Shown here in pieces: positions 10,747 to 40,321 of a DNA stretch of 64,000 bases (the stretch's first letter is position 1; the number at the start of each line of letters is the position of its first letter). Source of the DNA: a virus. Its lineage: Duplodnaviria > Heunggongvirae > Uroviricota > Caudoviricetes. The notes under the pieces were generated by a model. The model searched no databases, was not told the origin of the DNA, and worked only from the letters and a program-made list of their open reading frames with translations. A program made the translations under genes and the position numbers. The stretch is taken from the IMG/VR virus record IMGVR_UViG_3300035034_002381, positions 1-64,000 of that record. One strand, 5' to 3'.

Positions 10747-10750
10747 CTAA

Positions 10751-10785
10751 GTTAGTACGGGTTCGATCCCCGTCTTGGCTACTAA
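10751..10785 (+). other. isolated T-arm-like hairpin ACGGG-TTCGATC-CCCGT (tRNA fragment)
   Basis: Seen in sequence. Confidence 0.3.
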
Positions 10786-10787
10786 AT

Positions 10788-10899
10788 TTGACCGTGGTGA
10801 AATTGGTAAACACACCCTTAAATCAGGGAGTATGAGAATATGTACTTGAAGCTGACGCAGAACATCATACATATGTAGGTTCGAATCCTATCGGTCGAA
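10788..10899 (+). ncRNA. 112-nt tRNA-like RNA with a ~44-nt insertion: a 7-bp hairpin ATATGTA...TACATAT between the anticodon-arm-like region and the T-arm
   Basis: Acceptor TTGACCG/CGGTCGA, D-region GTGAAATTGGTAAACAC, CCCT-TAAATC-AGGG, inserted hairpin 10838-10874, T-arm GTAGG-TTCGAAT-CCTAT. Confidence 0.45.
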
Positions 10900-10904
10900 C
10901 AAAT

Positions 10905-10978
<74 letters not shown>

Positions 10979-10984
10979 CTATCT

Positions 10985-17119: not shown

Positions 17120-19195
17120 ATGAACAAAGATTCTAATGTATTATTAATACTTGAAAGATCTTCATCAAATCTAGATGTTAACAAGGAATCGGGTGATTAT
17201 ATTCTCGAAGGTATTTTTGCTCAATTTGGAGTTGAAAACAATAACAAAAGGATTTATGAGGAAAAAGAGTATTTACCACATCTCGAATACTTAAAAAAGA
17301 AAATTTCAGAAAATCGATTGATGGGAGAACTTGATCACCCAGAAAAATTTGAAATTGCTTTAGACAAAGTATCTCACGTAATTGAGAATATTGAATATGA
17401 TCAAGCAAAACGCCAGATTAAAGGGCGTGTACGTATTTTAGATACGCCATCCGGAAAAATCGCAAAGAGTCTAATCGACTCTAATATTCCTATTAGTATT
17501 TCATCACGAGCTGCTGGTTCTGTGAGTGAAAATAAAACTGTTTCTATTAAGAGAATTTTTACTTATGATTTAGTTGCTGATCCAGGTTTTGAAGATGCAC
17601 AATTATCAAGAATAAATGAATCATTTGGTTTAGACAACGAAAATAATCTACAAATTTTTGATGCTTCTAGATGGGACAACAATTTTTCGTTTGATGAAAA
17701 AGAAAAAGAAAAGCCTGTTGAGGCAATAAAAGAAAATAAAGAAAATACTACAGATATGAAAGAATTTGTGACAATTGAAAGCATGGAACGCTATTCATTA
17801 ATGGTCAAAGAAGAAATTGCTAAAATCAATACACGATTAGAAACTCTGAATGAGAGTAATGCTAATTCTGATGAAACAGCAGAACTTAGAAAAACCGTTG
17901 ATAATTTAGTAGGGTATGTTAATGAAATGGCTACCGAAATTAATCAAAACAGAGAATACATGTCATATACTGCTGAAATGCTTGACGAAAGTATTTCTTG
18001 GTCAGAAAATGAGATCGGTAATCAAGTTACTAAATTAATTGAATATACTGAATCTGAATTGGCTGTTCATCTTGATGGTTTAATTGAACACAATAACTAT
18101 CTTGCAGAAAAATTAAACACGACTATTGGATACGTTAATGAAGAATTGGCTCCAATTTTAGATGAGTCTATTAATCACAATGATTATTTAGTTGAACAAA
18201 TTGCTAATAACCGAAAATATACTGAGTATCTTGCTGAAAATGCTGTAGACTCAACAAATTTTGATTCGTTAGTAGAATATACTGAACATGTATATGAAAA
18301 TGCTGCTGGAAAATTTGAAGGTAAAATTAATGAATCTGCAACTGCTGAGGATGTAATTAAAAAACATAAACTTAAAACACATCACGATGTTGCTAAGTTT
18401 ATAGGAGATTTTTATGATTTACCAGATACAATTAAAGGATCTACCGATAAATTCACATTTAAAGACGTTGAGGACAACGTAATTAAAGTTGATGGTAAAG
18501 CAGGAACAGTAGACGGTAAAAAATTATCTCTGGCGGGATTGGTTGATCTTATGTCAGGTGGTGATTTTGATCTTCTTATTGAAAATCAAGCTAATAAAAT
18601 TAACGAAAATAAAAACGTATCAACAGATATTGAAAATCGATACATGAGTATCAATGAAAAAATTGACGCGGCTCTTGAGCAGATCAAGAAAACAAAGACT
18701 GAAGAAATCACAGAGTCTAAACGTCATCCTTTCACCAAACTACTCAACGAAAGTAATAGAGCTGCTTTCACTGAGTTAGGAAAAACCGAAAAAGAAAAGG
18801 TTTCAAAAGCTCTAAATGAAAACGGTATTTTAAGTACTGTAAAACTTAACGAAAAATTCACTTCATTGTTAGAAGGTAATTTCGAAATTGTTGAAGAGCC
18901 TAAATGGTTATCTGAAGCACCAGACAAGTATAAAGCTATTTTTGAAAGTTTGAATGAGGAAACTCAGGATAAACTTAGAGCTCAAGCTTCATGGTACGAA
19001 GGTAAACTTAAATCTCCTTATCAAATCGAAAATTTCTGGGCAACTAGAGGACTGAACGAAGACGTTGAGTTGAAGAATCTGAAAGACGATGCTGATGTAA
19101 AACTTATTAAAGAAAGTAATGATAGATCTAAAGATCTGGGTTATTCTTCTGATCGAGTTGCTGCAATTAAACAAGGTCTGAAAAGATTCAAATAA
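17120..19195 (+). CDS. prohead maturation protease (HK97/S78-like N-terminal domain) fused to a scaffolding-like coiled-coil region
   Basis: N-terminal ~150 aa with GELDHPE and ISISSRAAGS resembling the S78 His and Ser motifs; remaining ~540 aa acidic, helical and repeat-rich; immediately upstream of capsid gene. Confidence 0.55.
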   Translation: MNKDSNVLLILERSSSNLDVNKESGDYILEGIFAQFGVENNNKRIYEEKEYLPHLEYLKKKISENRLMGELDHPEKFEIALDKVSHVIENIEYDQAKRQIKGRVRILDTPSGKIAKSLIDSNIPISISSRAAGSVSENKTVSIKRIFTYDLVADPGFEDAQLSRINESFGLDNENNLQIFDASRWDNNFSFDEKEKEKPVEAIKENKENTTDMKEFVTIESMERYSLMVKEEIAKINTRLETLNESNANSDETAELRKTVDNLVGYVNEMATEINQNREYMSYTAEMLDESISWSENEIGNQVTKLIEYTESELAVHLDGLIEHNNYLAEKLNTTIGYVNEELAPILDESINHNDYLVEQIANNRKYTEYLAENAVDSTNFDSLVEYTEHVYENAAGKFEGKINESATAEDVIKKHKLKTHHDVAKFIGDFYDLPDTIKGSTDKFTFKDVEDNVIKVDGKAGTVDGKKLSLAGLVDLMSGGDFDLLIENQANKINENKNVSTDIENRYMSINEKIDAALEQIKKTKTEEITESKRHPFTKLLNESNRAAFTELGKTEKEKVSKALNENGILSTVKLNEKFTSLLEGNFEIVEEPKWLSEAPDKYKAIFESLNEETQDKLRAQASWYEGKLKSPYQIENFWATRGLNEDVELKNLKDDADVKLIKESNDRSKDLGYSSDRVAAIKQGLKRFK

Positions 19196-19213: not shown

Positions 19214-21007
19214 ATGAAACTTTTAAACGAACAAAAGATCTATGATGAGTGGGCTCCTATGCTAGAGGAGGAAACTTCAATCAAAGATTCTTCAAAATTG
19301 GGATGGATGACTAAATATTGTCACTACCATTCATTAAATGAAGCATTCACTGCACCTGCAGCTGGATTGCTTAACACGCCAGGTATGGGTAATGTAACTC
19401 CTGCTGGAGCTGCTGCCGGTGGTGCTAATGCATTCTACGGAAGTACTACTACTGGTTCAGGAGATAAATTCCCTTCATTATTGCCACTATCTATTCAGGT
19501 AGCTGCAAGAACTGTAGGATTTGATATCGTTCCTGTTATTCCTATGAACGGACCTTCGGGGGTTCTTACATACATGGATTATGTCTATGCTGGTGGAAAA
19601 GGAGCATTCGGAGCACCTCCAGGTGCTGCAGGTGCTGCAAACCCAGGTCTTAACGCTTACGCTGACAAGCCGTTAGTATTCAAAATCCAACTTGTTGGAG
19701 ATGAGAAAACTGCTTTCGATGCTGCTGCTGCGGGTGATGAATTCTTATTTGCTTCTGGTGCACTTGCTGCAACTGGAAACACACTACGTGTTGCTAAAAT
19801 CGGTCCTTCTAGAATCGACGGTCACTCTATTTTTAGAGTAATTGGAGAATCTGGTGATGCTGATGCGACTGGCGGTGCAGCTGCTGCTGTAGCGACAACT
19901 CTTACATCGCCACAATCTATCACATTGGCTTCTGTATTTACAGGAACTGCTGCGATGATTACTGCGGCTGGTGCTTTAGTTGATGCTGCTGATTCAGTAG
20001 TTAATCGTCCAGAACTTGTTAAAGCTCTTGAAGATCACGTTCAAGGTTTTGCTGGTGCAGGTCCAAACGATGATGAAGCATGGTCAGGAAATGCGACTGA
20101 TGGTACTGTATCTTACGAACCAATGCGAAGAGGTGTAGGTGAAGAGCAGTACTTCAGAACTATGGGACTTCAAGCTTTCACGAAATTCATTGAAGCTGAA
20201 ACTTTCCAAGTTGCTGCTAATGTTACTACAGAACAAATTCAAGATTTACAACGTCAGTATGGAATCGATGTGATTGCAATGATCGAGAACTCATTAGTAA
20301 ATGATATCTCTCAATCTATTAACAAGCACATTCTTTCTAGAGCTTTCGCTCTTGGATGGGGTGCAAACCTTACATTCAGAGATGTTGAAGGTGCAAACCT
20401 TAACCTTGAATTGGTAAACACTGGAACTGGTGTTACTGCAACTCCTGCTTACATTGATAAGACTGGAGTAGGTACTGCATCTGTATATCCTGCTTTCCAA
20501 GAATTTGCTGGAGCTGCTGCTGCTGCATCATTGGAAAACCAAGCAACATTCCAACGAAGAGTATATTCTAAAGTACTTGCTGCTGGAAACGTTGTTACTC
20601 AAAGAGGACGTAGAGGACCTGCAAACTTCATTGTTACTAACCTTCAGTTAGCGACAGCGTTGCAAGATTCTGCACAATTCTCTTGGGCACCAATGGCAAA
20701 CACCATTAACCAAAACAACGGTTCGCTTTACCCAGTGGGTACTGTAGCCGGAATGACTGTTTATGTAGATCCTAACATGGGATTCTCTGATAACAGAATT
20801 CTTGTTGGACGTAAAGGTGCTGATGAAGAACCAGGACTTAAATTCATGCCTTACTTAATGGCTGAATCAATCCAAACAATTGCTGAAGGTACAATGGCTC
20901 CGAAAGTTGCCGTAAAATCACGTTATGCTTTAGTTGAAGCTGGACACCACCCAGAAACAATGTACTTTACTATTGCAGTAAATGTACCTGTAGGTGGATT
21001 AGTATAA
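19214..21007 (+). CDS. major capsid protein (putative)
   Basis: 597 aa, Ala/Gly/Thr-rich, directly follows protease-scaffold, followed by strong terminator. Confidence 0.6.
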   Translation: MKLLNEQKIYDEWAPMLEEETSIKDSSKLGWMTKYCHYHSLNEAFTAPAAGLLNTPGMGNVTPAGAAAGGANAFYGSTTTGSGDKFPSLLPLSIQVAARTVGFDIVPVIPMNGPSGVLTYMDYVYAGGKGAFGAPPGAAGAANPGLNAYADKPLVFKIQLVGDEKTAFDAAAAGDEFLFASGALAATGNTLRVAKIGPSRIDGHSIFRVIGESGDADATGGAAAAVATTLTSPQSITLASVFTGTAAMITAAGALVDAADSVVNRPELVKALEDHVQGFAGAGPNDDEAWSGNATDGTVSYEPMRRGVGEEQYFRTMGLQAFTKFIEAETFQVAANVTTEQIQDLQRQYGIDVIAMIENSLVNDISQSINKHILSRAFALGWGANLTFRDVEGANLNLELVNTGTGVTATPAYIDKTGVGTASVYPAFQEFAGAAAAASLENQATFQRRVYSKVLAAGNVVTQRGRRGPANFIVTNLQLATALQDSAQFSWAPMANTINQNNGSLYPVGTVAGMTVYVDPNMGFSDNRILVGRKGADEEPGLKFMPYLMAESIQTIAEGTMAPKVAVKSRYALVEAGHHPETMYFTIAVNVPVGGLV

Positions 21008-21032: not shown

Positions 21033-21067
21033 CGAGAGGGGATCGAAAGATTCCCTCTTTTTTTTTG
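21033..21067 (+). terminator. rho-independent terminator (GAGAGGGGA-TCGAAAG-ATTCCCTCTC plus TTTTTTTTT)
   Basis: Strong hairpin then 9 T. Confidence 0.8.
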
Positions 21068-21116: not shown

Positions 21117-22802
21117 ATGAACACTTCAGTCAAAGATATTATAAAAAACGTAAAATCCACCAAAGGTTTAGCAGTAAAAATATCAAATTCAGAAAGTCTA
21201 AATAAAGAACTTTTAGAATTAACCAAATACCTACCAACAGACTCTAGTATATCTGAGCGCATTTATAATATCTTAAATAATATTGATGTACAAAGTCTTT
21301 GTATTTGTGGTGACACATTACCATTCATTAAAATTTCCAAAGGTTACAAAACTTCGTGTGGTAATAAAGAATGTAAGTCGCGAACACGGAGTAATATTAA
21401 TAAAGAATCCAGTAAGAAAATAGACTGGGGCGAATCGATCAATAAACAACAAAAAACCAATTTACAAAAATACGGTTATGTTTCTAATCTTGCATCACCT
21501 AAAGAACGAGAAAAACATAAAGTTATTCTTAAAGAATTGACTGGATATGAACACCCATTACAGAATCCTGAATCTAAAAAGAAAAGACATAACACTTGTA
21601 TAAAAAATCATGGTACATTAAATTTCATCCATTCAAATAAATCAATACAAACGTTACAAGCAAAATATAATACCACTGCCACTAATTGTGCTCAAATACC
21701 CGAAATTCAAGATAGATCTGCCAAAACCCAATCTATAAATGCTGATAAAGCTTTATATCAAAAAATTGATAAAATAAATAAAACTATAATAGATCTTAAT
21801 AAAACAAATGCTAATATTGAGTGTGTGGGTTGTGGTCGTATTATGAATATACATCGGCAAGCACTCAATTATTATATTCGAAATTCTATTGACAATTGTT
21901 GGTCTTGCAACCCTGATTTTTCACCATTTGCCAGTAACAAAGAAAAGATGATTGTTACATGGCTCACTGATATAGGTATCACAAATATTGACACAAATCG
22001 CCGGAGATTTGGTGGTAAAGAAATAGATATTTTCTTAAATGATTATAACCTAGGAATTGAATTCAATGGCACATATTGGCATAGTGAATTACACAAAGAA
22101 AAAAATTACCATTTAAATAAAAAAACATATATTGAGAACTTGGGTTTCAAGTTGATTAATGTTTGGGAAGATGATTGGGAAGATGATATAAAACGTAATA
22201 TAATTCAAAGCAGAATTAAAAATTTAATAAACCTAAATCACCGCAAAATATATGGGCGTAAATGTCAGATAGTTCAAATATCTAACAAAGAAGCTAAAGA
22301 ATTTTATACCAATAATCATATTCAAGGTCATGCTATATCAGAAATTAACTACGCATTAGTATATGATAATGAAATTGTTTCAGTCATGAGCTTTTCTAGT
22401 AAAAATAGATTTTTCATTAAGAAAAATAGGGATAATGAAATAGAGTTGACTAGATTTGCAAATTTGATAGGTGTAAGTGTTTTAGGTGGTTTCTCTAAAC
22501 TATTCAAACATTTTTTGAAAAATAATGACCATGATACCATTATTTCATTTGCAGAATTTGATTGGACTGATGAGACTAATAATGTTTATCTTATGAATGG
22601 TTTTAAATTTTTAGGGAATTCTGGACCATCGTATTCATGGGTTGTTAATGGAAAACGGTTTTCTAGATTTAACTTTTCTAAGCAAAAATTAATCAAAGAA
22701 GGTTATGATAAGAATAAAACAGAAGTCGAAATAATGCACGAAAGAAAATATTATCGAGCTTGGAATAGTGGTAACTTAAAATTTATTTATAATAAATTAT
22801 AA
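21117..22802 (+). CDS. free-standing homing-endonuclease-like protein (Zn-ribbon motifs plus Vsr/PD-(D/E)xK-like core)
   Basis: CxxC...CxxxC pairs (CICGD...CGNKEC; CVGCGR...CWSC); segment GGKEIDIFLNDYNLGIEFNGTYWHSE resembles Vsr/DUF559-type nuclease core; inserted after capsid gene and flanked by a duplicated capsid 3' end. Confidence 0.45.
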   Translation: MNTSVKDIIKNVKSTKGLAVKISNSESLNKELLELTKYLPTDSSISERIYNILNNIDVQSLCICGDTLPFIKISKGYKTSCGNKECKSRTRSNINKESSKKIDWGESINKQQKTNLQKYGYVSNLASPKEREKHKVILKELTGYEHPLQNPESKKKRHNTCIKNHGTLNFIHSNKSIQTLQAKYNTTATNCAQIPEIQDRSAKTQSINADKALYQKIDKINKTIIDLNKTNANIECVGCGRIMNIHRQALNYYIRNSIDNCWSCNPDFSPFASNKEKMIVTWLTDIGITNIDTNRRRFGGKEIDIFLNDYNLGIEFNGTYWHSELHKEKNYHLNKKTYIENLGFKLINVWEDDWEDDIKRNIIQSRIKNLINLNHRKIYGRKCQIVQISNKEAKEFYTNNHIQGHAISEINYALVYDNEIVSVMSFSSKNRFFIKKNRDNEIELTRFANLIGVSVLGGFSKLFKHFLKNNDHDTIISFAEFDWTDETNNVYLMNGFKFLGNSGPSYSWVVNGKRFSRFNFSKQKLIKEGYDKNKTEVEIMHERKYYRAWNSGNLKFIYNKL

Positions 22803-22863: not shown

Positions 22864-22918
22864 TATGTTTAAAACTTATATTAATCTTAGATATATAAAC
22901 TACATATAATCAAATAAT
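22864..22918 (+). promoter_or_regulatory. second copy of promoter-like element ATGTTTAAAACTTATATTAATCTTAGATATATAAAC...TATAAT
   Basis: Near-identical to 6523-6576. Confidence 0.5.
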
Positions 22919-22966
22919 ATGAAGACATTTAATGAATACGAACAAATCAATGAATCTGGTAATTAA
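22919..22966 (+). pseudogene. decayed member of the MK-x-F-x-EF family (MKTFNEYEQINESGN then stop; reading continues in another frame)
   Basis: Start-region paralogy to 6577 copy including upstream promoter element; premature stop after 15 codons. Confidence 0.35.
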
Positions 22967-23235
22967 AACTGCACAAAAAATTCAAATAGATCTTAAGAAA
23001 TTTCTTGAAGATGTAGTAATACCAGCATCTAATGGATATGTTAGAAATGAAGGTGATGCAGCTTTATTGTTATACGATATACTTGCACAAAAATATGATA
23101 TTACAACATAGACGCTATGAATGACGACGAAAAAATATAGTTTAAGTTCCAAATTATAGATTTAGTTAAGAAAAATCCCAACAATGAAAAACTGGGTGAA
23201 AAGATTAGATCTTTTACTAAAAATATGATATAAAG

Positions 23236-23484
23236 ATGAAAAACATAAAAGATTTTGGTGAGTTTAAATTAAATGAAAAAAGAAATGAGGCACTGAAAAA
23301 GGTTAAAACATCTTCGACTGTGCTAGATAATTTTGTTATGGATGTATTAAAAACTCAAAAGCTTTATCAAAACGAAATTCCTAAGCTACTTGCTAATGAT
23401 AAAGAATTAATAACTGAATTCAAAGAAGGTCGACAAGCATTTAATGATCTTCGAATATTAAATGATATGCTTGCAAAGAAATAA
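23236..23484 (+). CDS. small protein with capsid-targeting-like N-terminus MKNIKDFGEFKLNE
   Basis: 82 aa; family N-terminus. Confidence 0.55.
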   Translation: MKNIKDFGEFKLNEKRNEALKKVKTSSTVLDNFVMDVLKTQKLYQNEIPKLLANDKELITEFKEGRQAFNDLRILNDMLAKK

Positions 23485-23492
23485 ATAATACA

Positions 23493-23702
23493 ATGAAAAA
23501 CTTAAAAACATTTGAACAGTTTGTAACTGATAAGCTAATGGAAGGTGCAATGTCTGATATACATCTTATGGCTAAAAATTCTAAAACTATAGAAAATTTT
23601 ATAAAAGCTTTTTATAAAAAATACGATAATAAAGTCAAGAAGGGAAAAAGCACTGATGAATGGATAATCAGTCTATATAATGATATGGAATCAAAAACAT
23701 AA
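23493..23702 (+). CDS. small protein with capsid-targeting-like N-terminus MKNLKTFEQFVTDKLME
   Basis: 69 aa; family N-terminus. Confidence 0.55.
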   Translation: MKNLKTFEQFVTDKLMEGAMSDIHLMAKNSKTIENFIKAFYKKYDNKVKKGKSTDEWIISLYNDMESKT

Positions 23703-23711
23703 ATACCACTA

Positions 23712-24743
23712 ATGAAAAATTTAAAAACATTTGAACAATTTGAACTAGAAAATCTTAATGAGAAAGTGGGTTATAATCAAATTTCACACAAAAATAAAAG
23801 TTTTGTAGTTTATAATCATAAAGGAATTGAAGATTTATCTAAAAAATATAAAATTGTCAACCTAAAGAATTCTGTAGGACCTGATATAGAATTTCCTGCA
23901 ATAGCAGAATTAGATAATAATAAACCTTTTATTAGAAACATCTATAGACATGAGCTTGATAAATTAGAAAAAGGAATCTTTTTCGAATCCCATAATTTAG
24001 ACAAAGATGCTAAACTTTTTGAATCTGGAGCGATAACTAAAATTTTGACAGATGCAGGATTTATCAGTTTTGAAGACTCTGATGAATATGATTATGATAT
24101 AGGAATAGGTGGAGTAATTAACACTGTTGATCCAGGTATAGCTAAAGATATAGCAGATGAATTAAATGATAATGGTATATCTGCGAAAGCAAAAAGAGAT
24201 ACTGTAATTGTTGAATCTGTGAATGAGGGAATTTACGCTGATAAACTCGCAAAAGGATTATGGGATGGTGACATGGATTTTTCCGATTTAAGTAAAAGTG
24301 AACAAGACTTAATCGACAAGTTCGTCAAAAGAAATCTTGGTATCTTTAAAGACGAAAGATTTGAGATTCCCTTTCCTGATGAAGCTGCTGACACTGGAGA
24401 GTTTTGGGATGAAATTCAAAAAGATAAAGATTACTCAAAATTTGCAAAGGCTGTTAAAAAAGCAAGTTTGGGTGAAATTGAGTTTGTGAACGAATCTATT
24501 AATCAGATTCCTGGAGAAATACAATTTAATGTTGAACCACATACGTTTCTTAAAGATCCTAGAGAACTAGACAAAGCAGTAGCTGAAGTTGATAAATATT
24601 TAGCGGGCGGTAAAGAAAACATTGGCGGATTTATGATAGATCGATATTTAAAAGATTCTTTTGATCTTGATGCGTTTATTGACTCTGTGCATTTACATTA
24701 CCCTAGACCAATGATTCCTGAAATTCAATCCAAGAATCTATGA
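23712..24743 (+). CDS. acidic protein with capsid-targeting-like N-terminus MKNLKTFEQFELENLNE
   Basis: 343 aa; family N-terminus. Confidence 0.6.
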   Translation: MKNLKTFEQFELENLNEKVGYNQISHKNKSFVVYNHKGIEDLSKKYKIVNLKNSVGPDIEFPAIAELDNNKPFIRNIYRHELDKLEKGIFFESHNLDKDAKLFESGAITKILTDAGFISFEDSDEYDYDIGIGGVINTVDPGIAKDIADELNDNGISAKAKRDTVIVESVNEGIYADKLAKGLWDGDMDFSDLSKSEQDLIDKFVKRNLGIFKDERFEIPFPDEAADTGEFWDEIQKDKDYSKFAKAVKKASLGEIEFVNESINQIPGEIQFNVEPHTFLKDPRELDKAVAEVDKYLAGGKENIGGFMIDRYLKDSFDLDAFIDSVHLHYPRPMIPEIQSKNL

Positions 24744-24937
24744 ATGAAGCTAGTCATAAAAATGATTTTCTTGATTTTTTCCGAGTTCCTGATTCTAAAA
24801 GGTTAAAATTTGCAATTTATAAATTTGATGGTAATGACGATATGGATGATTTATTTGATGATCTTAAACCTTATGCATCGACAGTTGATGAGGTTAGAAA
24901 CTATTATGAAATAGCAACAAAAACACGCGATAATTAA
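24740..24937 (+). CDS. small acidic hypothetical protein
   Basis: 65 aa; ATGA overlap. Confidence 0.4.
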   Translation: MNEASHKNDFLDFFRVPDSKRLKFAIYKFDGNDDMDDLFDDLKPYASTVDEVRNYYEIATKTRDN

Positions 24938-25806
24938 TGAACTTTAAAACATATTCACATCTGAAGGAAATTCTTCATGAAAGTGAAAATTATCAAGAAG
25001 TAATACATGAAGCTTTTGAATGGATTGAGGATGATTCTATTTTTGAGGCATACGCGTGGGCTTTTATTAAAAGCCCTGTTAAAGTGACTAAAATGTTTAC
25101 TAATCAAAATAAGCTTACAAAATCTTTAATTAGTCAGGCTGTTATTGATATTGATCTACAGAATCGTAAAGAAGCTGCTAAAAAAATATCTGACCCACAG
25201 AAAGCCAAAAACCAGAGAGAAAAACTCCAACAAGCTCATGACATAAAGAAAAAGGGTTTATCCGATAAAATCAGTGGTATAAAACAAAGAATTGATGATT
25301 TAGCTGGTAGTGATTCTAAACTTCAAGAATTGGCTTCAAATTTAAAAACTAAATCTGGATTAGCTGCTGCAGAGAAATTAATTAAGGCAGCTGATGGGGC
25401 AGAACAGAAAGAATTACAAATTAAGATTAGAAAAAGTAAAGAAAAACTTTCGAGACAAGAAAACATTTTTAAAGAATATGAGTCTAATCTTTCTACTGAG
25501 GATAAAGCTAAAGGTCAAGAACAAGCTAAAACTGCTAAATCTGAAGACGATGGAAAATCTGATTCTACTAAAAAGGATGCAGAGTCTTCTATTGAGGAAA
25601 AAATCGAGGCGGAAAAGGATGCAATTAACGATTTAGTTAGAGAATTTAATGGGAAGAAAAAGAAAATTGCAGAAGCTAGAAAAAGATCGCATATTACACA
25701 AGCAAAATTTGATGAGTTAATGAAAAATCTCATGAAAGAAGGTCACCAAGAAAAAATTGATGTTCATAAAAAGAACATTATAGATTTAAAAAAGAATAGC
25801 AAATAA
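24937..25806 (+). CDS. Lys/Glu-rich coiled-coil hypothetical protein
   Basis: 289 aa; N-terminus MNFKTYSHLKEILHE weakly family-like. Confidence 0.5.
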   Translation: MNFKTYSHLKEILHESENYQEVIHEAFEWIEDDSIFEAYAWAFIKSPVKVTKMFTNQNKLTKSLISQAVIDIDLQNRKEAAKKISDPQKAKNQREKLQQAHDIKKKGLSDKISGIKQRIDDLAGSDSKLQELASNLKTKSGLAAAEKLIKAADGAEQKELQIKIRKSKEKLSRQENIFKEYESNLSTEDKAKGQEQAKTAKSEDDGKSDSTKKDAESSIEEKIEAEKDAINDLVREFNGKKKKIAEARKRSHITQAKFDELMKNLMKEGHQEKIDVHKKNIIDLKKNSK

Positions 25807-26081
25807 TGAAAAAGGCAAGAACATTTACAGAATTTAATGAGTCTATATCAAACGAAGAAGAACTAAATGAAGCAGTCGATGTATTTATCGCAATTGCTGA
25901 AGCTTTAGACGTAAGTTTAGATGTCGCAAAAATGATAGTAGCTTTGGCAGGAGTCACCGGAACAGTAACTTTCGCAGCAGCAATGACAAAAATCCAAGAT
26001 GTATTGGCAAAGAAAAATCCTAAATTATCTAAGAAATTAGGTGATATTACAAAAGGAGCAAATAACGCGAGAACACAATAG
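25806..26081 (+). CDS. small protein with N-terminus MKKARTFTEFNESISNEEELNE
   Basis: 91 aa; family-like N-terminus. Confidence 0.5.
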   Translation: MKKARTFTEFNESISNEEELNEAVDVFIAIAEALDVSLDVAKMIVALAGVTGTVTFAAAMTKIQDVLAKKNPKLSKKLGDITKGANNARTQ

Positions 26082-26085: not shown

Positions 26086-26505
26086 ATGGATGATATTAGC
26101 AATGGAGGTGGAATTCTCCAAAAAACAAAGATACTTACAGTAACAAATAAGATTGGTTATGCCAAGAATTCTGAGGGTGTGACTTCTGTATTTGCTAATA
26201 CTGATATTGGAGCAGGCGATCTTATCGAGGTTGCGACCCTTCTAGAAGTTTCAGATATGGTGATGACAAATAGAGAAATTGCTGATCATGTTTTTACAGT
26301 AAATCCAGAAAGTAAACAATATGCGATCGGTTTAGGATTTGCTTGTTTATATCAACATAACGATAAACCTAACGCCGAGTGGAATATACCTAGCGATAAA
26401 AAGGAAATCAGATTTACTGCTAAAGACGACATAAAAAAATCTGAAGAAATCACAATTTCATACGGAAAGAATTATTTCCTAAGTAGAGAAAAGAAAGAGG
26501 AATAA
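26086..26505 (+). CDS. SET-domain protein (putative lysine methyltransferase, vSET-sized)
   Basis: About 139 aa; LYQHNDKPNAEW resembles the NHSCxPN pseudoknot region; EEITISYGKNYF resembles the ELxxDYG C-terminal SET motif. Start taken at internal ATG 26086 after the stop of the preceding gene. Confidence 0.5.
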   Translation: MDDISNGGGILQKTKILTVTNKIGYAKNSEGVTSVFANTDIGAGDLIEVATLLEVSDMVMTNREIADHVFTVNPESKQYAIGLGFACLYQHNDKPNAEWNIPSDKKEIRFTAKDDIKKSEEITISYGKNYFLSREKKEE

Positions 26506-26562: not shown

Positions 26563-26973
26563 ATGAAAGCCTTTACTTATGTTATAGATATTGATGACAC
26601 TATCAATATTACCGATAGAGATGAAAATAATATAGGACTGTATTCTCAGTCTCGGCCGATACTTAAAGTTATCAATAAAATTCGAAGACTTAAAAAAGAA
26701 GGCCACAAAATCATACTTTTTACTGCTAGAGGTATGCGTACATTTAATAATGATGTCAAAAAAATCGAAGATTTTCATAGAGAAACACTCGTTAAATGGT
26801 TAAATGACCATGAAGTCCCTTATGACGAACTACAGTTCGGTAAACCATGGGGCCCCCATGTAATATATGTCGATGATCGTGCTGTTACTATTAACCAATT
26901 TGTTTTGGGTGGTCCCGAAAATCACAGAAGTTATACACACATTAACAAAACAGTTATAAATGATGAATTATAA
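26563..26973 (+). CDS. HAD-superfamily phosphatase
   Basis: DxDxT motif YVIDIDDTI near N-terminus; 136 aa. Confidence 0.5.
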   Translation: MKAFTYVIDIDDTINITDRDENNIGLYSQSRPILKVINKIRRLKKEGHKIILFTARGMRTFNNDVKKIEDFHRETLVKWLNDHEVPYDELQFGKPWGPHVIYVDDRAVTINQFVLGGPENHRSYTHINKTVINDEL

Positions 26974-28660
26974 AGTAATTATTCCCGCGGCAGGGAAGGC
27001 ATCAAGACTCAAGCCTTTATCTTCTTCAATGTCAAAATCAATGGTGCCAGTAAATGGTAAACCAATAATTTCATATATTCTTGATCAACTGTTTGAACTA
27101 GGAAATCCATTTCAAATAGTTATTGTTGAAAATGAGCTCGGTGATATTCAAGATTTTGTTAAAAACGCATATCCAAATTATTATGAAGAATCCCGTATTC
27201 TTTTTGCAACTCAAAAAGAAAGGTTAGGTCCTTTGCATGCTATTGAAATTGGTGCAAATAGGTTTCCGGAAAATGATAACATGCCAATTATGGTTTGGCT
27301 CGGAGATACAATCTGTTTGGAAATGGGTGAGTTGCCAGTTAATGAATCTTTATTAATTACATCGCCTGTCGCCGATTATAAAAGATGGTGTTTAGTAGAT
27401 AACGAGAATGTCTTCTATGATAAACCAGATAACAAACCAAGCACTAACCAAGCTTTAATAGGTATATATTATTTCCATGATTTTAAGGCCTTCTACGAGG
27501 CCCTAGATAAGGGAATGCAAGCTCCTATGATTAAAGATGAACATCAAATATCGGCTTTATTAGAAGCATATAAAAAACAACATATATTCAAAATCAGAAA
27601 AACTGATGAATGGTTTGATTGTGGTGAGTTACATACATTTTATGAATCTAAAGCAAGACTTCTTGGAAGATCTGCCAGGTCATTTAATAGTCTAGAAGTA
27701 AATACATTCCATAACACAATTACTAAATCTTCATTAACATTCGAAGGTAAACTGAAAATTGAGAATGAAAAAAATTGGTATTTAGGTTTACCTGAGAATA
27801 TTCAGATTCTCACACCTAGAGTATTAAAATCAAATTCAGGTACGCTAGTTATGTCGCAAGAACCTGGAACACCTCTTAATGAAATGTGGCTTTATGAGGA
27901 TTTGACTGATGATACATGGAAAAGAATAATTGATAAAACGTTACTTATACACAATAAAATTTTCTATCAATCTAGATATATTCCTAAATCTTCTAAATTA
28001 GATAGATTTGCTGCAAGAAAGGAAATGTATCTGACTAAAAATATTGACAGATTGACAGAAATTTCATTCCTGCCTTTTGCACAGAAAAATATAAAAATGA
28101 TTCGAGATTTTGTGCGGGTTACTGGTGAATTATTAATTGAAGATGAAGGTCGTTGGTCGCCACATTTTCATGGAGATTCTCACATGGGTAATATTTTATT
28201 TGAACCTTTACAGGGAAGTATGAAATTTTTGGATCCACGTGGAAAGTTTGGAAATATCGTAGGCATTGAGGGCGATATGTATTATGATATGGCTAAAATT
28301 GCGCAAGATTTTCTTTTACGCTATCCTGAAATTTTATCTGGTCATTATCATTTTAGTGGAGATAATTTTGACCAGCTTGAATTTTATAGAAATGACGAGA
28401 GATCTAAAACTATGCTAAAACATTTCAGAAAAAGAATTGGTGAATATGGTTATATTCCTAATCTTGTTTTAATGTTAGCAACTGTGCTTATCATAACTTG
28501 TATACCTTTTCATAAAGACGATCCAGAAAGACAAAAAGCATTTTGGTATATGGCAGTAAATGTTATTAAAGAAAGAGGGTGGAATATCCAACTCGAAGAT
28601 CATCTCAAAAAACAAAAATTACAATTATCAGACAAGATACATAATCTATACAACTTATAA
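26960..28660 (+). CDS. bifunctional sugar/alcohol-phosphate nucleotidyltransferase (LicC/RmlA-like N-terminus) plus choline/aminoglycoside-kinase-like domain (LicA-like C-terminus)
   Basis: N-terminus KVIIPAAGKASRLKPLS...MVPVNGKPIISYILDQL (GxGxR nucleotidyltransferase motif); C-terminus HFHGDSHMGNILFEP and IEGDMYYDMAKIAQDF (kinase-fold catalytic motifs). Confidence 0.6.
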   Translation: MMNYKVIIPAAGKASRLKPLSSSMSKSMVPVNGKPIISYILDQLFELGNPFQIVIVENELGDIQDFVKNAYPNYYEESRILFATQKERLGPLHAIEIGANRFPENDNMPIMVWLGDTICLEMGELPVNESLLITSPVADYKRWCLVDNENVFYDKPDNKPSTNQALIGIYYFHDFKAFYEALDKGMQAPMIKDEHQISALLEAYKKQHIFKIRKTDEWFDCGELHTFYESKARLLGRSARSFNSLEVNTFHNTITKSSLTFEGKLKIENEKNWYLGLPENIQILTPRVLKSNSGTLVMSQEPGTPLNEMWLYEDLTDDTWKRIIDKTLLIHNKIFYQSRYIPKSSKLDRFAARKEMYLTKNIDRLTEISFLPFAQKNIKMIRDFVRVTGELLIEDEGRWSPHFHGDSHMGNILFEPLQGSMKFLDPRGKFGNIVGIEGDMYYDMAKIAQDFLLRYPEILSGHYHFSGDNFDQLEFYRNDERSKTMLKHFRKRIGEYGYIPNLVLMLATVLIITCIPFHKDDPERQKAFWYMAVNVIKERGWNIQLEDHLKKQKLQLSDKIHNLYNL

Positions 28661-28670
28661 AAAACATACT

Positions 28671-28949
28671 ATGAGCAAAGATTTAGAAAAAGCTAGTGAG
28701 ACACTAGAAGAAACATTGACAGATATCCAAAAGGTGGCAGCTGCTAATTTTTATGATATTGTACAAATTAGTTTAGCCGATAAAGAAGGTAAAGTAGTTG
28801 GTAAAGCTTCTATGAAATATGAAGATATTTTAGCAATGACTAAGATGCATACACAAGATTCTTCACACGTTGTAGGAATGTTATTTCATGCAGTCGAATC
28901 AGAAACTCGTAACAAATTACGAGAAGAAAAAGAAAATGAAGCCAAATGA
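28671..28949 (+). CDS. hypothetical protein
   Basis: Internal ATG of listed ORF 28560..28949 chosen to avoid overlap with upstream gene. Confidence 0.4.
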   Translation: MSKDLEKASETLEETLTDIQKVAAANFYDIVQISLADKEGKVVGKASMKYEDILAMTKMHTQDSSHVVGMLFHAVESETRNKLREEKENEAK

Positions 28950-29134
28950 TTTTTAAAGTAAGAGTAGAAGAAAAGAGCATAGAAGATGTTATAGAACTTA
29001 TTGAAACAGGAGAAGGGAAAAAAGGTCTCCAATTTGATCTATATAATGAAAAACCATATTTTTCACATGTAGAAATTTTCGTTAATACTGATGATTTCTA
29101 CACATTAAAGGATTATTTAAATGAACAAACCTAA
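28946..29134 (+). CDS. small hypothetical protein
   Basis: 62 aa; ATGA overlap. Confidence 0.35.
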   Translation: MIFKVRVEEKSIEDVIELIETGEGKKGLQFDLYNEKPYFSHVEIFVNTDDFYTLKDYLNEQT

Positions 29135-31064
29135 GACTATATGTCTTGTTATGATTGTAAAAAATGAGGCAAAAAATTTACCTCGTTGTTTTTCTACGAT
29201 CAAACATATTATTGATTATTGGGTAATTGTTGATACTGGTTCAACTGATAACACACAGGAAGTTATACAGAAAGAGTTAGCCGATATTCCTGGTGTATTA
29301 ATGGAAAGACCGTGGGTCAATTTTGGTCATAATAGATCCGAATCTTTGGCTTTTGCTAAAAACAGAGCAGATTATCTTTTGCTTTGTGATGCTGATGAAC
29401 AAATTATACCTACACACAATTTTGACAAATCTGAGTTGACTCTTGATCAATATCATTTAAGATATAATGGGAGCTTAGATTATATGGTTCCTTATCTTAT
29501 TAAGTCTAATTTGGCTTGGAGATTTGTAGGAGTTACCCATGAATTTTTGACAGCAAGTGACACAAAATCTTCAGGTGAGATTAAAAGCCTTTCAATTAAA
29601 GATTGGGGAGATGGTGGAGCAAAATCTGATAAATTTGAAAGAGACATTAAATTGCTCGAACAAGGTTTGATTGATGAACCGAAGAATGTTAGGTATATGT
29701 TTTATCTAGCAAATTCTTATAAGAATACTAAGGATTTTGATAACGCAATCAAATGGTATAAAAAACGTATCGATGCAGGGGGTTGGATAGAAGAAGTTAC
29801 ATGTTCATATGAATATATGGGAGGATGTTATCAGCAGAAAAATGACCACGGGAATGCGATTAAAACATGGATAGATGGTTATGAATTTAATCCTTCTCGT
29901 GCTGAGTGTTTATATGAGGCAGGTAAATTACTTCGTGAAGAAAATAAGAATAGAATAGCTTACGAATTTTTACAAAAGGCTAAAGAAATTCCATATCCTA
30001 CTAACGATAGATTATTTATCAAAAGAGATGTTTATGAATATTTGATAGATTATGAACTGACTATTTGTGCATATTATGTTAAACCAGAATATGATATGAC
30101 CGAGACATTTAAAAGGCTAATCTTTTGGCCAAGTCATTTACAACAAAACATTATACAAAATTTTAAGTTTTGGGCTAAAGATTTGAATACACTTATAGGT
30201 CAAGAGGAAAGTATGATCTTGGCTAAAGATTTGATTAGTAATGATTTGGTTGAGGGTTTTACACCTAGTTCCCCATCAATTCTTTTTCATAAAAATCGCA
30301 AGTACATAAATGTGCGCCAAGTATCATATAAAATTGACGAAAATGGTAAGTATTTAGATCGTGCAAGTGGAGGTCATTGTAAACATGTGAATACAATTAA
30401 CACAATGTATTGGACTGATGGACCCTCATATGACACGGAAAATTTTAAACCCAATGATATTTCTACTAAACATGTGAATGGTATTGAAGATCTAAAACTA
30501 TATACACACAATGGAGTAATCAAATACACTGGGACAAAATGGTTGGATTATAACAAAATTTCTATAGTTATTGGTGAGTATACTAAAGAAGGTCTAGATA
30601 ATTATGCTATTCTAGAGTCTCCAGAAGGAAGGAATGTTGAAAAAAATTGGGTACCGTTTGGATTAGATAATGAAGAACTTTTTGTATATGATTGGAATCC
30701 AATAAAAATTGGAAGAATCAAAAATAATAAACTAGTAATCAAAAATTTAAAAACTAGTTTTCCTAACTTGCGTGGATCAGCTCCTGGTAAACTTATTGGA
30801 GATCATATCTATTTTTTATGTCATTTTGTAGAATATTCTACACCAAGAATTTACTATCATATCTTCATTAAAATGCATAAAGATAATTGGGAAAAAATCG
30901 AGATTTCTAAACCGTTTGTTTTTGAAAAACCACAAATAGAATATTCAGTAGGATTTGATTATAATATTAAGACTGATGATATACATATTGCATATAGTGT
31001 AAATGATTCGAATGCAAGAATCAAATCTTATTCACAAACACAATTTCAAAAACTTTTTACTTAA
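29121..31064 (+). CDS. family 2 glycosyltransferase with TPR-like middle region and extra C-terminal domain
   Basis: TICLVMIVKNEAKNLPRCFSTIKHIIDYWVIVDTGSTDNT is typical of GT2 N-terminal DXD fold. Confidence 0.6.
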   Translation: MNKPKTICLVMIVKNEAKNLPRCFSTIKHIIDYWVIVDTGSTDNTQEVIQKELADIPGVLMERPWVNFGHNRSESLAFAKNRADYLLLCDADEQIIPTHNFDKSELTLDQYHLRYNGSLDYMVPYLIKSNLAWRFVGVTHEFLTASDTKSSGEIKSLSIKDWGDGGAKSDKFERDIKLLEQGLIDEPKNVRYMFYLANSYKNTKDFDNAIKWYKKRIDAGGWIEEVTCSYEYMGGCYQQKNDHGNAIKTWIDGYEFNPSRAECLYEAGKLLREENKNRIAYEFLQKAKEIPYPTNDRLFIKRDVYEYLIDYELTICAYYVKPEYDMTETFKRLIFWPSHLQQNIIQNFKFWAKDLNTLIGQEESMILAKDLISNDLVEGFTPSSPSILFHKNRKYINVRQVSYKIDENGKYLDRASGGHCKHVNTINTMYWTDGPSYDTENFKPNDISTKHVNGIEDLKLYTHNGVIKYTGTKWLDYNKISIVIGEYTKEGLDNYAILESPEGRNVEKNWVPFGLDNEELFVYDWNPIKIGRIKNNKLVIKNLKTSFPNLRGSAPGKLIGDHIYFLCHFVEYSTPRIYYHIFIKMHKDNWEKIEISKPFVFEKPQIEYSVGFDYNIKTDDIHIAYSVNDSNARIKSYSQTQFQKLFT

Positions 31065-32362
31065 TGTACATTATAAAAAACAATAAACTTGAATCTACTG
31101 ATAATATCGATTTATTTTTTAATGAGATAAATGTTGGACAACATATTGCTAAATATGGATATTTCGAAAGTGACCTTATTAATTGGTTAAAGCTTACATA
31201 TAAAAATAATGATAAAATCTTTTTAGATTTAGGAGCGCACATAGGTTCATATTCAATAGAATTAGCAGAAAATTTTCATTCAGTTCATTCATTTGAACCT
31301 AATCCAACAGTCTATAATCATTTATGTGCTAATGTTGCATTAAAGAGATTATCAAATAGGGTATTTCCACACAGAGTTGCATTATCGGATAATAAATCTA
31401 AACAGCCATATTATGAGAGATCCAAAGATGGTGGAGGTAATGGAATTGAAGTTGTAAGAGAGAACGATAAGCACTCATTCTTTGTAGAATCTAAATGTTT
31501 AGATGATTATTCTTTCGATAAAGAAATCGGTTTGATTAAAATTGATATCGAAGGTCATGAGTATAAAGCTATTTTGGGTGCATATGAAACTTTGAAAAAC
31601 TCATATTTCCCACCTATAATTTTCGAATCTTGGGCGCAAAATACACACCCAGAATATTCACAAGAAATACTTTTAGAAATTCGTGATAAAACATTTGATG
31701 TATTAAAGGATTATGGATACACTGTTAAATCCATAAGTGGATATAATGAAATGTTTATTGCTGTTCAAGAGCGTGAAAAATCTCAAGAAGATATTATTGT
31801 TGAAGGTCTTTTGACAGATAAGTTAGACGTATGGCTTAACTCACCTGGAGGGACTCGAAGCAATTATATAGCCGATGTTCTAGAAAAAAGTAATTTAAGA
31901 GTGAGAAACGAATCCTGGTATAAGTATGGTTGTCATTGGACTTCTCCTTTATTTGAAAGGGAATTTAAAACTACAAGATTGTTTTGCTACACTAGCGATA
32001 TCGGACTCGCATTGACAAGTCAGTTAAATGCCAATACTATTGATAAACTGAATTTTGCAGATTTTTATAATGAACCATGGGATTTATATCGATGGATACA
32101 AAATATTAAAAAACAAGTGATTAACTGGTCGGATCCTGGCGTATTCTTTTTAAATACCGACTATTTAAATGATAAAGATATTCAGTCTGAATTTAAAACT
32201 CTTACTGGAGATAGTTTAGACATATCAGATTTCAGACTTGACCGTAAATCTAAAAAATTACATCCTGCATTAATACAATACATGGATGAGATTAATGAGA
32301 TTAATGAGTTATTAGCAAAATTACCTAATGCCGGTTTTGGCGGAGAAGTTGATGAAGGTTAA
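31064..32362 (+). CDS. FkbM-family SAM-dependent methyltransferase, two-domain
   Basis: FLDLGAHIGSYSIELAE (FkbM glycine-rich motif) in N-terminal domain. Confidence 0.5.
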   Translation: MYIIKNNKLESTDNIDLFFNEINVGQHIAKYGYFESDLINWLKLTYKNNDKIFLDLGAHIGSYSIELAENFHSVHSFEPNPTVYNHLCANVALKRLSNRVFPHRVALSDNKSKQPYYERSKDGGGNGIEVVRENDKHSFFVESKCLDDYSFDKEIGLIKIDIEGHEYKAILGAYETLKNSYFPPIIFESWAQNTHPEYSQEILLEIRDKTFDVLKDYGYTVKSISGYNEMFIAVQEREKSQEDIIVEGLLTDKLDVWLNSPGGTRSNYIADVLEKSNLRVRNESWYKYGCHWTSPLFEREFKTTRLFCYTSDIGLALTSQLNANTIDKLNFADFYNEPWDLYRWIQNIKKQVINWSDPGVFFLNTDYLNDKDIQSEFKTLTGDSLDISDFRLDRKSKKLHPALIQYMDEINEINELLAKLPNAGFGGEVDEG

Positions 32363-34122: not shown

Positions 34123-35022
34123 ATGATATCAGAAGAAAAATTTCCCGATGGACAAATTAATTTTAAAGCAAATACAGAGGACATCAAAAGTCTTTTAACA
34201 CCACCATACATTTTATCAAATGATAATGCGATAAATTTTACAATTGATCTAAGTAACTGGGATAAATTTCAAACTTTGTTGGCAGCCAATGCAAAATTTA
34301 GACAAACGCACAAACAAATTAATTTACATATAGGTTATCTTTTTGGTTCAAGAAGTGACCGTAAATTTGAACATGACGGAATTAACTATTTTCGTGATGT
34401 AATTGCTAAAACAATCAATGATCAAAATTTCAACAAAGTTACTGTATTTGATCCACACTCACTTGCAGTAGAAAATGCAATTAATAATTGTGAGAGTATT
34501 CATCCGTTCCCACAAATCAATCACCATTTTTTAAATATGGTTGGAAATTTAGATTTATCTGAATATGAAATTGTTATAGCGTCTCCAGACCTTGGGGCAT
34601 ACAAAAAAGTCTTTGGAATTTTTGCTAAATTTTCCGAAAAATATCCAAACATACATTTTAATTTTATTTCCGCAAATAAAATTCGTAGTCTGTCTGGTGA
34701 TATTTCTATGGTTTTAAATCCACCATATAAAGAATTTGACAAATCAAAAAAACGAATTCTATATTTAATTGATGATATTTGTGATGGCGGGAGGACCTTT
34801 ATAGAATTTGCTAAACTTCTTAACGAAGATTTTGAGAAAAAGTATCTATATGTATCACATGGAATATTTTCTAAAGGTCTTGATCCATTATTAGAACATT
34901 TCGATAAAATTTTTACTACAAACAGTATTTCGAATACTTATATCAAATATCTAACAAACGATAATACCATTCTAAATTCTAACATTCTTTTTACCACATT
35001 TATTTCGCAACGCAATGAATAA
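34123..35022 (+). CDS. ribose-phosphate pyrophosphokinase (Prs) homolog; could be an Adps-type enzyme
   Basis: 299 aa; PRPP-binding loop ILYLIDDICDGGRTF; VTVFDPHS resembles Prs DLHA region. Confidence 0.55.
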   Translation: MISEEKFPDGQINFKANTEDIKSLLTPPYILSNDNAINFTIDLSNWDKFQTLLAANAKFRQTHKQINLHIGYLFGSRSDRKFEHDGINYFRDVIAKTINDQNFNKVTVFDPHSLAVENAINNCESIHPFPQINHHFLNMVGNLDLSEYEIVIASPDLGAYKKVFGIFAKFSEKYPNIHFNFISANKIRSLSGDISMVLNPPYKEFDKSKKRILYLIDDICDGGRTFIEFAKLLNEDFEKKYLYVSHGIFSKGLDPLLEHFDKIFTTNSISNTYIKYLTNDNTILNSNILFTTFISQRNE

Positions 35023-35989
35023 AAAAGCAACAATTCTTCTTGGACTGCCATTAGCAGGCAAGTCGACTTATATAGGAAACAGAATAGAATATGGTGATTG
35101 GTCAGACACAGGATTAGTTTTAGTATCTGCAGATGATCTTAAAGAAAATCATGAAGATTATGATCCCGACCATGCGTATAAAATTCATGAGTGGTCAGTT
35201 AAAGAGGCCGAAAGGCAAATGAAAGAATACTCAGAATTTGGATCAAAACACATTATCATGGACGGTGGTGGCATTAACAATTCATATACTCGTAGAATTA
35301 TGTCTGATCTACGTTTAAAAGGTTATGAAATTGAACTTATACATATTAAAACGCCGCTCCAAGTTTGTCTTCTTAGAAATGAGAAGCGGGTCCGCAAAGT
35401 TCCAGTGCATGATATTGTAACAAAGGCAGCTCGAGAACGTAAACAATATGAGATACTTAAAGATGTTGTAGATAGTGTTACTATAGTTCCATATTTCACA
35501 AACAAACATATTTTTATAGATATGGATGGAGTTATTGCGGGACAGTCTGTCTTGCCAGAATTTGAAGGAAAAATAGATTTTGTTAATAGCGAAATTTTTA
35601 CTATTTTACCACCTGTTCATCAAGTTATTGATAAACTTAATAGTCTTGATTCTGAAAAACATACACTTTATATTTTATCAGCAACACCGAATTCATATTC
35701 GTATACTGAAAAACATGATTGGTTAGATAAACATTTTAACATACCAAGAGAACGCAGATTTTTTGTAAATGCTGGAAAGCATAAAGCAGAAATGTTAGAA
35801 AATCTAAGAATAAAACTCAAAACTGATAAACGTGATGTCACTCTGATTGAAGATACGCACTCGACACTTAAAGATGTTAGAGACCTTAGAATGAATCCAA
35901 TACATGTATCTGAATTTTTATCAAATGATTTTTTGCGAGATGAAGAATTATATGACTATAAATATTACGAAAACCCAAATAATAAATAA
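35015..35989 (+). CDS. P-loop nucleotide kinase fused to HAD/NT5C-like phosphatase domain (PNKP-like architecture)
   Basis: Walker A GLPLAGKST at N-terminus; C-terminal FIDMDGVIAG (DxDGV) HAD motif. Confidence 0.5.
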   Translation: MNKKATILLGLPLAGKSTYIGNRIEYGDWSDTGLVLVSADDLKENHEDYDPDHAYKIHEWSVKEAERQMKEYSEFGSKHIIMDGGGINNSYTRRIMSDLRLKGYEIELIHIKTPLQVCLLRNEKRVRKVPVHDIVTKAARERKQYEILKDVVDSVTIVPYFTNKHIFIDMDGVIAGQSVLPEFEGKIDFVNSEIFTILPPVHQVIDKLNSLDSEKHTLYILSATPNSYSYTEKHDWLDKHFNIPRERRFFVNAGKHKAEMLENLRIKLKTDKRDVTLIEDTHSTLKDVRDLRMNPIHVSEFLSNDFLRDEELYDYKYYENPNNK

Positions 35990-35995
35990 AAAGAT

Positions 35996-39107: not shown

Positions 39108-39110
39108 ATT

Positions 39111-40319: not shown

Positions 40320-40321
40320 AT

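Follow-up and report, generated by a model that had tools for sequence, protein, structure and literature searches.

The window, a 64-kb stretch of viral DNA, encodes a genuine SET-fold protein of vSET size; within the SET family, this protein of a large T4-like phage is a new and divergent member. The fold assignment was made because the Pfam score, the sequence match to vSET and the structural match found by Foldseek all agree. The explanation we consider best for the data as a whole, and to which we give an even chance, is a vSET-type methyltransferase belonging to a phage SET lineage linked to the head genes, with the window copy leaderless and its cofactor pocket remodelled. The features of the locus are listed in Table 1.

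Table 1. Features of the SET gene and of the genes and signals around it, in window positions
Feature	Position	Strand	Details
Prohead protease, T4 gp21 / Peptidase_S77 type	17120..19195	+	PHROG 207, E 3e-40; PF03420
Major capsid protein, gp23 family	19214..21007	+	PF07068, 122 bits
Promoter-like GATATATAA and 15-codon leader-only ORF, MKTFNEYEQINESGN plus stop	22890..22966	+	ORF at 22919-22966
82-aa and 69-aa genes	23236..23702	+	leaders MKNIKDFGEFKLNE and MKNLKTFEQF
343-aa gene	23712..24743	+	leader MKNLKTFEQFELENLNE
289-aa Lys/Glu-rich gene	24937..25806	+	leader MNFKTYSHLKE; 48% identical to the same-position L007 protein; no Pfam or PHROG match
91-aa gene directly upstream of SET	25806..26081	+	T4 CTS-like leader MKKARTFTEFNE
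SET-domain gene	26086..26505	+	ATG start; 139 aa plus stop; first base 4 nt past the stop of the upstream gene
SAM-binding motif I (GxG) site	26182..26187	+	reads T33-S34 in place of x-G
SET domain proper	26188..26466	+	residues 35-127, the Pfam match; pLDDT 83-97 there
His68	26287..26289	+	Tyr in 88% of the family; vSET 'DYLF'
Pseudoknot/cofactor motif LYQHNDKPN	26347..26373	+	NHSxxPN equivalent; Gln90 replaces Asn; His91, Pro95 and Asn96 kept
C-terminal catalytic motif EEITISYG	26443..26466	+	Tyr126 aligned to vSET Tyr105
Perfect 16-bp inverted repeat, 10-nt loop	26531..26572	+	directly 3' of SET; dG -27.5 kcal/mol, z -6.3

The original prediction, made from the DNA letters, was of a phage-encoded minimal SET protein of about 139 aa, to be checked against Pfam PF00856 and refuted by the absence of a SET HMM match. 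The ORF was confirmed, and its product matched PF00856 (Pfam SET) with 43.7 bits, clearly above the gathering cut-off of 22.4 (E 4e-11), in an alignment spanning profile positions 4 to 105 of 105. On the 5' side the reading frame offers just a short GTG extension without recognisable features. The architecture is minimal, with a single Pfam domain in 139 aa and no pre-SET or post-SET domain. By sequence, the best match in the PDB was vSET (1n3j; phmmer, E 1e-9), followed by P. falciparum PFL0690c and S. pombe Set7. Both motifs that had been pointed out, LYQHNDKPNAEW (residues 88-99) and EEITISYGKNYF (residues 120-131), are present, and phmmer aligned them with FNHSKDPNARH and EEITISYGDDYW of vSET. 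In the second of them EEITISYG is identical between the two proteins; the first departs from what was expected, as Gln takes the place of the NH-motif Asn, unlike in 90% of the family.

An AlphaFold2 model built from 88 homologues had a mean pLDDT of 82, compared with 32 when three close homologues alone were supplied; its SET core exceeds 83 and residues 1-20 are of low confidence. Among solved structures, the top Foldseek match was vSET (3kma; TM 0.87 normalised to the target, rmsd 2.2 Å, 27% identity), and the top matches were all SET enzymes (vSET, PFL0690c, SUV420H, Set7 and MLL; E 1e-10 to 1e-8). A chlorovirus protein ranked first among viral structure models. The proposed comparison in size with vSET (139 aa versus 119 aa) thus extends to a top rank by both sequence and fold. 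There is no second SET copy in the 64-kb window, no PHROGs v4 family matches the protein, and 12 kb searched by megablast matched nothing in the phage collection. Two forms of fusion were considered and rejected. Read-through of TAG from the 91-aa gene into SET, as in Lak-style recoding, would meet a TGA after four codons, so that no fusion is possible, and a BLASTP search for SET homologues fused to other window proteins gave one weak, unrelated match only.

The GxG motif I of SET enzymes contacts SAM via its backbone, and positions 34 and 90 of the window protein belong to the textbook SAM-binding motifs. In an alignment of 262 relatives to one profile, column 34, the second Gly of GxG, is Gly in 235 sequences (90%) and Ser in the window protein. 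Column 68 is Tyr in 88% of the relatives and His in the window, and column 90, the Asn of the NH motif, is Asn in 235 of 262 (90%), Gln in 6 and Gln in the window. The His of column 91 (97%) and the Tyr of column 126 (260 of 262, 99%) are kept; a role for the corresponding Tyr105 of vSET has been described (PMC3914023). The window protein therefore reads Ser/His/Gln at the positions where 220 of the 262 relatives have the canonical Gly/Tyr/Asn triple. His68 is found in 5 of the 262 members and Gln90 (26353-26355) in 6, with both together in 4, of which one (P0007) falls outside the window clade; this co-occurrence has the look of a compensatory active-site pair. His68, Gln90, His91 and Tyr126 are invariant across the three members of the window clade. 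Syntenic orthologues on contigs L014, L016, L018 and L012 have the canonical triple. In the groups nearest to the window clade (P0006, P0007, P0019, P0021, P0026, P0036 and others) positions 34, 68 and 90 vary freely, with Asn90 replaced by Arg, Lys, Ser, Thr or Ala, and His91 and Tyr126 are retained. EZH2 Tyr641 and DIM-5 Tyr178 were considered as equivalents of His68 and dropped because the residue register was not secured, and nothing is claimed on product specificity.

A HMMER scan recovered 2,031 relatives at E <= 1e-3, yet apart from the protein's own cluster only one representative cluster beat 1e-27. Only two close homologues, 73% and 69% identical, came out of a word-based search, and no relatives above 45% identity were found outside the resulting three-member clade; judged by these searches, the window protein is a member of a small, distinct clade. 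Within it, dN/dS is 0.10-0.26 (rough values, as dS is near saturation), and the gene is under purifying selection. The exact protein is present on 7 metagenomic contigs (each <=64 kb) from several samples, with the same gene order. Broadly, the wider family divides into three: proteins with a transmembrane helix at the N-terminus, cellular forms and phage forms. One transmembrane form, P0183, lies on a giant-virus-like contig (L013) with ankyrin and PIF1 genes. The cellular forms, scanned for with a profile from 7 sequences, gave at least 555 matches in bacterial and archaeal genomes, many of them in aquatic Bacteroidota (Saprospiraceae and others), Patescibacteria and Methanosarcina.

The view that SET-domain proteins are rare in phages proved overstated. 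In IMG/VR, 154 stretches encode relatives, and the phage genes stand in several unrelated contexts: some neighbour a tail sheath gene, some are flanked by homologues of SbcD and SbcC, and others lie close to a terminase gene. BFVD and UniProt hold entries named 'SET domain containing protein [uncultured Caudovirales phage]', and ORF62 of the cultured Stenotrophomonas phage Ps15 is annotated as SET (PMC9025141). Within the phage collection, only the records of the 735-kb phage LR756501/3 and of Lak phages contain a relative of the protein. Given the IMG/VR stretches, the UniProt-derived models and the annotated Stenotrophomonas phage ORF, SET proteins in phages are uncommon, yet not novel. In the literature we found no phage SET protein that had been characterised.

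The window DNA belongs to a tailed phage whose head is of the T4-like type. Its G+C content is ~31%, and almost all long ORFs lie densely on one strand. The capsid protein is 40-43% identical to those of Lak phages and of LR756500 (a 462-kb uncultured phage), and by this sequence identity it links the window phage to a lineage of very large phages. A set of 21 tRNA genes in 229-10979 (~11 kb), with duplicates for Met (three), Tyr (two), Ile (two) and Arg-TCT (two), fits a very large phage genome. The order of protease, capsid protein and, a few kb on, SET is kept in four large viral contigs, L014 (136 kb), L015 (238 kb), L016 (86 kb) and L018 (143 kb), whose capsid proteins are 58-60% identical to that of the window and whose SET proteins are only 32-34% identical. 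Synteny that outlasts such divergence argues for a link between SET and the head genes, and the gene context points towards a head or internal-protein module rather than a named host target. The neighbouring 343-aa and 289-aa products, and the 610-aa and 790-aa neighbours on L014 and L016, belong to no PHROG family. A 561-aa ORF (21117-22802) with weak matches to REase (MTES_1575) and DUF7487 stands between the capsid gene and the leader cluster described below; it is present in L001 and L005, absent in L002-L004, and probably a mobile insertion.

The genes directly upstream of SET share a short N-terminal leader that resembles the capsid-targeting sequence (CTS) of T4. In T4, a 10-residue CTS directs proteins into the prohead core before gp21 cleaves it off; Alt and the internal proteins enter the core in this way, undergo trimming by the protease and are ejected together with the DNA. 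In the CTS, residues 4 and 7 serve targeting and residues 8 and 10 processing (PMC9026906), the internal proteins of T4-type phages are diverse with the CTS as their sole common element (PMC3012670), and related prohead proteases all cleave after Glu (PMC5694885). Six window ORFs start MK..K.F.EF, usually followed by L/I-x-E (6577, 23236, 23493, 23712, 25806 and 46797), and four of the six fall in the run 23236-26081 that ends directly before SET. A looser form of the pattern occurs in 7 of 67 window ORFs, compared with 1.0 +/- 1.0 in shuffled N-termini. The consensus is MKN[LIV]K.F.EF...L/I-x-E (cluster form MKNLKTFEQF...LxE), and further starts are at 7225, 24937 and 47731. The ORFs that share the leader are otherwise unrelated, none with a Pfam or PHROG match; by their leaders they are probably head internal or ejected proteins. 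The 289-aa product was read as a coiled-coil, scaffold-like protein. A histone-like 'ARKRS' in it was considered as a substrate site and dropped because it is not conserved in the L007 homologue.

Comparable leaders are found at the loci of the close homologues, on neighbours in L007 (MKNIKSFHEFLNE, MYVKTFKEFMLNE and MKNIKTFKEFVNE) and in L009 (MITFKEFLNE and ...KTYQELNE), and on SET homologues themselves. Three of the latter, P0012 (MKKFLEFINE), P0023 (MITFTEFITE) and P0005 (MRTFDNFLNE), match the T4 rule exactly, with aromatic residues at 4 and 7, I/L at 8 and E at 10; T4 IPII and IPIII start MKTYQEFIAE. The P0006 SET protein begins MKVFNDILNE, those of L014 and L015 begin MDFKSFEEILE (a looser fit in L014), and a larger homologue group has ...LEEY..LNE-DF(F/Y)NPF. 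On the resemblance to T4 and the gene context, we infer that the leader-bearing SET relatives would be packaged into the capsid and trimmed there. In the long homologues P0010, P0014, P0028, P0094, P0110 and P0020, a leader-like ..L..Y...INE-DF(Y/F)NPF is internal, between an N-terminal part of ~200 aa (or 560 aa) and the SET domain. Some of these proteins are ~400 aa long, the element resembles a cleavable linker, and a C-terminal tail ending GQS is common to all but P0020. In sequence layout, these long homologues look like polyproteins cut by the prohead protease.

The window SET protein starts MDDISNGGGILQK, and no in-frame leader lies upstream. It lines up with the point at which the mature L014 protein is predicted to begin, where MDFKSFEEILE gives way to SDIFVHGGGLLRK. 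In a neighbour-joining tree of the SET core, computed without support values, the window clade nests within leader-bearing phage forms. In L012, the nearest outgroup, the neighbouring HAD and nucleotidyl-transferase genes share 62-64% identity with those of the window, and the SET protein has an N-terminal extension and the canonical Gly/Tyr/Asn. Because of this nesting and the extension in L012, the simpler reading would be that the leader was lost, rather than gained, in the window clade. Since its first residues correspond to those predicted for the trimmed enzyme of its relatives, the window protein is probably made free in the infected cell along with its leader-bearing neighbours. It would stay cytoplasmic unless a partner carries it into the capsid; as it has no leader, the packaging idea is not directly applicable to it.

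Signals around the cluster were examined for how SET may be expressed. The exact motif GATATATAA occurs in 7 copies, all on the + strand (6547, 17091, 22890, 46766, 49514, 50448 and 56093), versus 2.1 +/- 1.4 expected, and 6 of the 7 lie 12-31 nt before start codons, including those of the protease gene (17120) and of the leader-only ORF at 22919. The exact form alone is enriched, and with one mismatch allowed the motif is not. Matches to the T4 late promoter TATAAATA are not in excess (14 versus 13.6 expected), and a sigma-70 scan was uninformative (48 sites versus 46.5 expected). A strong terminator stands 3' of the capsid gene (21034-21059), and from the motif copy at 22890 we infer the start of the cluster that ends with SET. 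At its far end, the inverted repeat behind SET encloses the AUG of the next gene at 26563 and may be an operon end or terminator, or a translational control element. This arrangement suggests a single transcription unit from ~22890 to ~26572 that closes with SET and shares its mode of control with the protease gene. The leader-only ORF overlaps, in another frame, a 59-aa ORF (22932-23111) annotated by gene callers, and looks like a frameshifted internal-protein gene. Before 6577, 22919 and 46797, a terminator hairpin, TTTATGTTTAAAAC and GATATATAA form a repeated terminator-promoter cassette, and these cassettes stand in front of leader-bearing genes.

In the mechanism that we propose, the SET protein would most likely act as a SAM-dependent protein-lysine methyltransferase, belonging to a SET lineage associated with the head genes of large T4-like phages. 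In related phages the orthologue carries a CTS-like N-terminal propeptide, with aromatics three apart and then L/I-x-E, and in this form would be loaded into the prohead core. The S77 protease would trim the loaded enzyme after the Glu, and the trimmed protein would be ejected with the DNA, as are Alt and the internal proteins of T4; PBCV-1 likewise packages vSET. The window copy would be a derived form that begins at the mature-enzyme start and stays free in the cell, with its cofactor and lysine pocket remodelled (Ser34, His68, Gln90) and the catalytic Tyr126 retained. The original prediction had suggested host nucleoid or ribosomal proteins, or phage structural proteins, as possible substrates. 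We would favour lysine-rich proteins of the head core, or internal proteins, encoded in the cluster itself, or else proteins of the host. On a broader scale, T4-like jumbo phages near the Lak and other huge phages may carry CTS-loaded, protease-trimmed and ejected methyltransferases that act on the host at the start of infection, with the window gene as a leaderless, His68/Gln90-compensated offshoot whose target has shifted to the inside of the cell, perhaps to head-core proteins of the phage itself. We put this broader proposal forward tentatively and rate its chance as below even.

The changes in the pocket could also mark an inactive or repurposed SET protein, in which the fold and peptide groove are kept without methyl transfer and the product serves as a lysine or peptide binder, an assembly factor or a decoy among the head and internal proteins. 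The GxG glycine, Tyr68 and Asn90 were replaced together in a family where 220 of 262 relatives have the canonical triple, and the nearest groups vary at the same positions, including Arg or Lys at 90; such free variation among sister groups could mean that catalysis was relaxed or lost in this branch. We consider an inactive protein rather unlikely, as His68, Gln90, His91 and Tyr126 have stayed invariant in a clade at 69-73% identity with dN/dS of 0.10-0.26, and 260 of 262 family members retain the catalytic Tyr. In addition, Asn to Gln, Tyr to His and Gly to Ser are conservative changes, and His68 and Gln90 occur together in 4 of the 5 His68 sequences, which looks compensatory. Because the substitutions are conservative, invariant at this level of identity and, for His68, paired with Gln90, several points favour a pocket that was rebuilt in the window clade, and an active methyltransferase appears to be the more likely reading than lost catalysis, if only modestly.

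The protein might also be a host effector of the vSET kind with no functional link to the head, methylating nucleoid-associated, transcription or translation proteins so that the host is shut down or redirected, as the repression of host transcription by vSET via H3K27 methylation (PMC3089700), the methylation of the chromatin protein MC1-alpha by archaeal Go1-SET and the action of bacterial SET effectors on chromatin (PMC10117894) would allow. Leader-bearing relatives would reach the host at ejection. The window copy, however, has no leader, its gene ends a cluster headed by the promoter-like motif of the protease gene, and, if that motif marks late expression, host shut-off would be of little benefit; the sequence also names no host target, and we hold this reading to be unlikely. 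Many relatives from the wider search lie on giant-virus-like contigs (L013, GVMAG) or are transmembrane forms, and the bacterial and archaeal genomes contribute their 555 or more, which would be in keeping with a window from a eukaryotic giant virus or a cell. Such an origin is scarcely conceivable for DNA with a gp23 capsid protein, an S77 protease, 21 tRNA genes and dense co-directional genes, in an order found on 7 contigs. The same very low probability applies to a chance open frame, which the Pfam and fold matches together with purifying selection exclude.

The favoured reading, a head-linked phage methyltransferase, has its nearest counterpart by structure in vSET (A612L of Paramecium bursaria chlorella virus 1; 1n3j/3kma), which is likewise a minimal virus-encoded SET protein. 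PBCV-1 'encodes and packages' vSET (PMC7019647), and packaging in the virion is what the leaders predict for the phage relatives. In contrast, the GxG, Tyr50 and Asn69 of vSET are T-S, His and Gln in the window protein, which also has an extra 20-30 N-terminal residues, poorly modelled, with a conserved GGG(I/L)L(Q/R)K. A tailed phage has a prokaryotic host without histones, so the substrate must differ from that of vSET, and H3K27 is presumably not shared. T4 IPI-III and Alt resemble the window cluster as diverse small genes with only the leader in common, near a gp21-type protease and a gp23-type capsid gene, and the leaders of the SET homologues follow the T4 residue rule. T4 Alt is a precedent for a packaged protein-modifying enzyme. 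The T4 proteins have no sequence homology to SET, and the window SET is leaderless; Alt performs ADP-ribosylation, whereas lysine methylation is predicted for SET. The small SET proteins of prokaryotes (Go1-SET of Methanosarcina mazei, and those of Saprospiraceae and Chitinophagales) are also single-domain, with 30-41% core identity, but are encoded by cellular genes and not by genes of a phage head cluster. The annotated phage SET ORFs (uncultured Caudovirales, Ps15 ORF62) have the same fold in tailed phages but other gene contexts, and none is characterised.

Lysine methylation by SET proteins is well known as a chromatin mark, and intracellular pathogens and one algal virus use it as a tool; to our knowledge, its place in the conflict between phage and bacterium is essentially unstudied. 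The locus offers a concrete handle, a conserved SET gene beside capsid genes in a widespread lineage of large aquatic phages. Its link to head and internal-protein genes and the leaders of its sister proteins turn a lone annotation into a testable idea of an ejected methyltransferase. If the capsid-delivery reading is true, phages would deliver a protein-methylating enzyme with their DNA, a bacterial-virus counterpart of packaged vSET and a new chemistry among ejected phage effectors; if the protein is inactive, the finding amounts to just another annotated ORF with a SET fold. How much change the SET cofactor pocket tolerates can be probed with the triple substitution that nature provides (Ser34, His68, Gln90).

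The remainder of the window has cargo of its own. Two regions, 26563-32362 and 37791-45468, are dense in genes for modifying sugars and nucleotides, which encode a HAD phosphatase, a nucleotidyl-transferase that has a long C-terminal extension, GT2-TPR, an FkbM methyltransferase, a GT-like protein, a C5 DNA methylase, LicD, GT25 (with a weak match to TET-associated glycosyltransferase), a pyruvyl transferase and a thymidylate-synthase homologue. These genes may serve DNA hypermodification or glycan decoration. An NAD salvage cluster at 34123-37714 encodes a PRPP-synthetase-like protein, an AAA_33/zeta-type kinase and a nicotinamide phosphoribosyltransferase (PHROG 448, E 8e-172). More unusual genes encode an SPFH/Band-7 protein (1201-2661), an M43 metallopeptidase with a signal-peptide-like N-terminus (12713-14710) and a triple-S1 RNA-binding protein (62635-63840).
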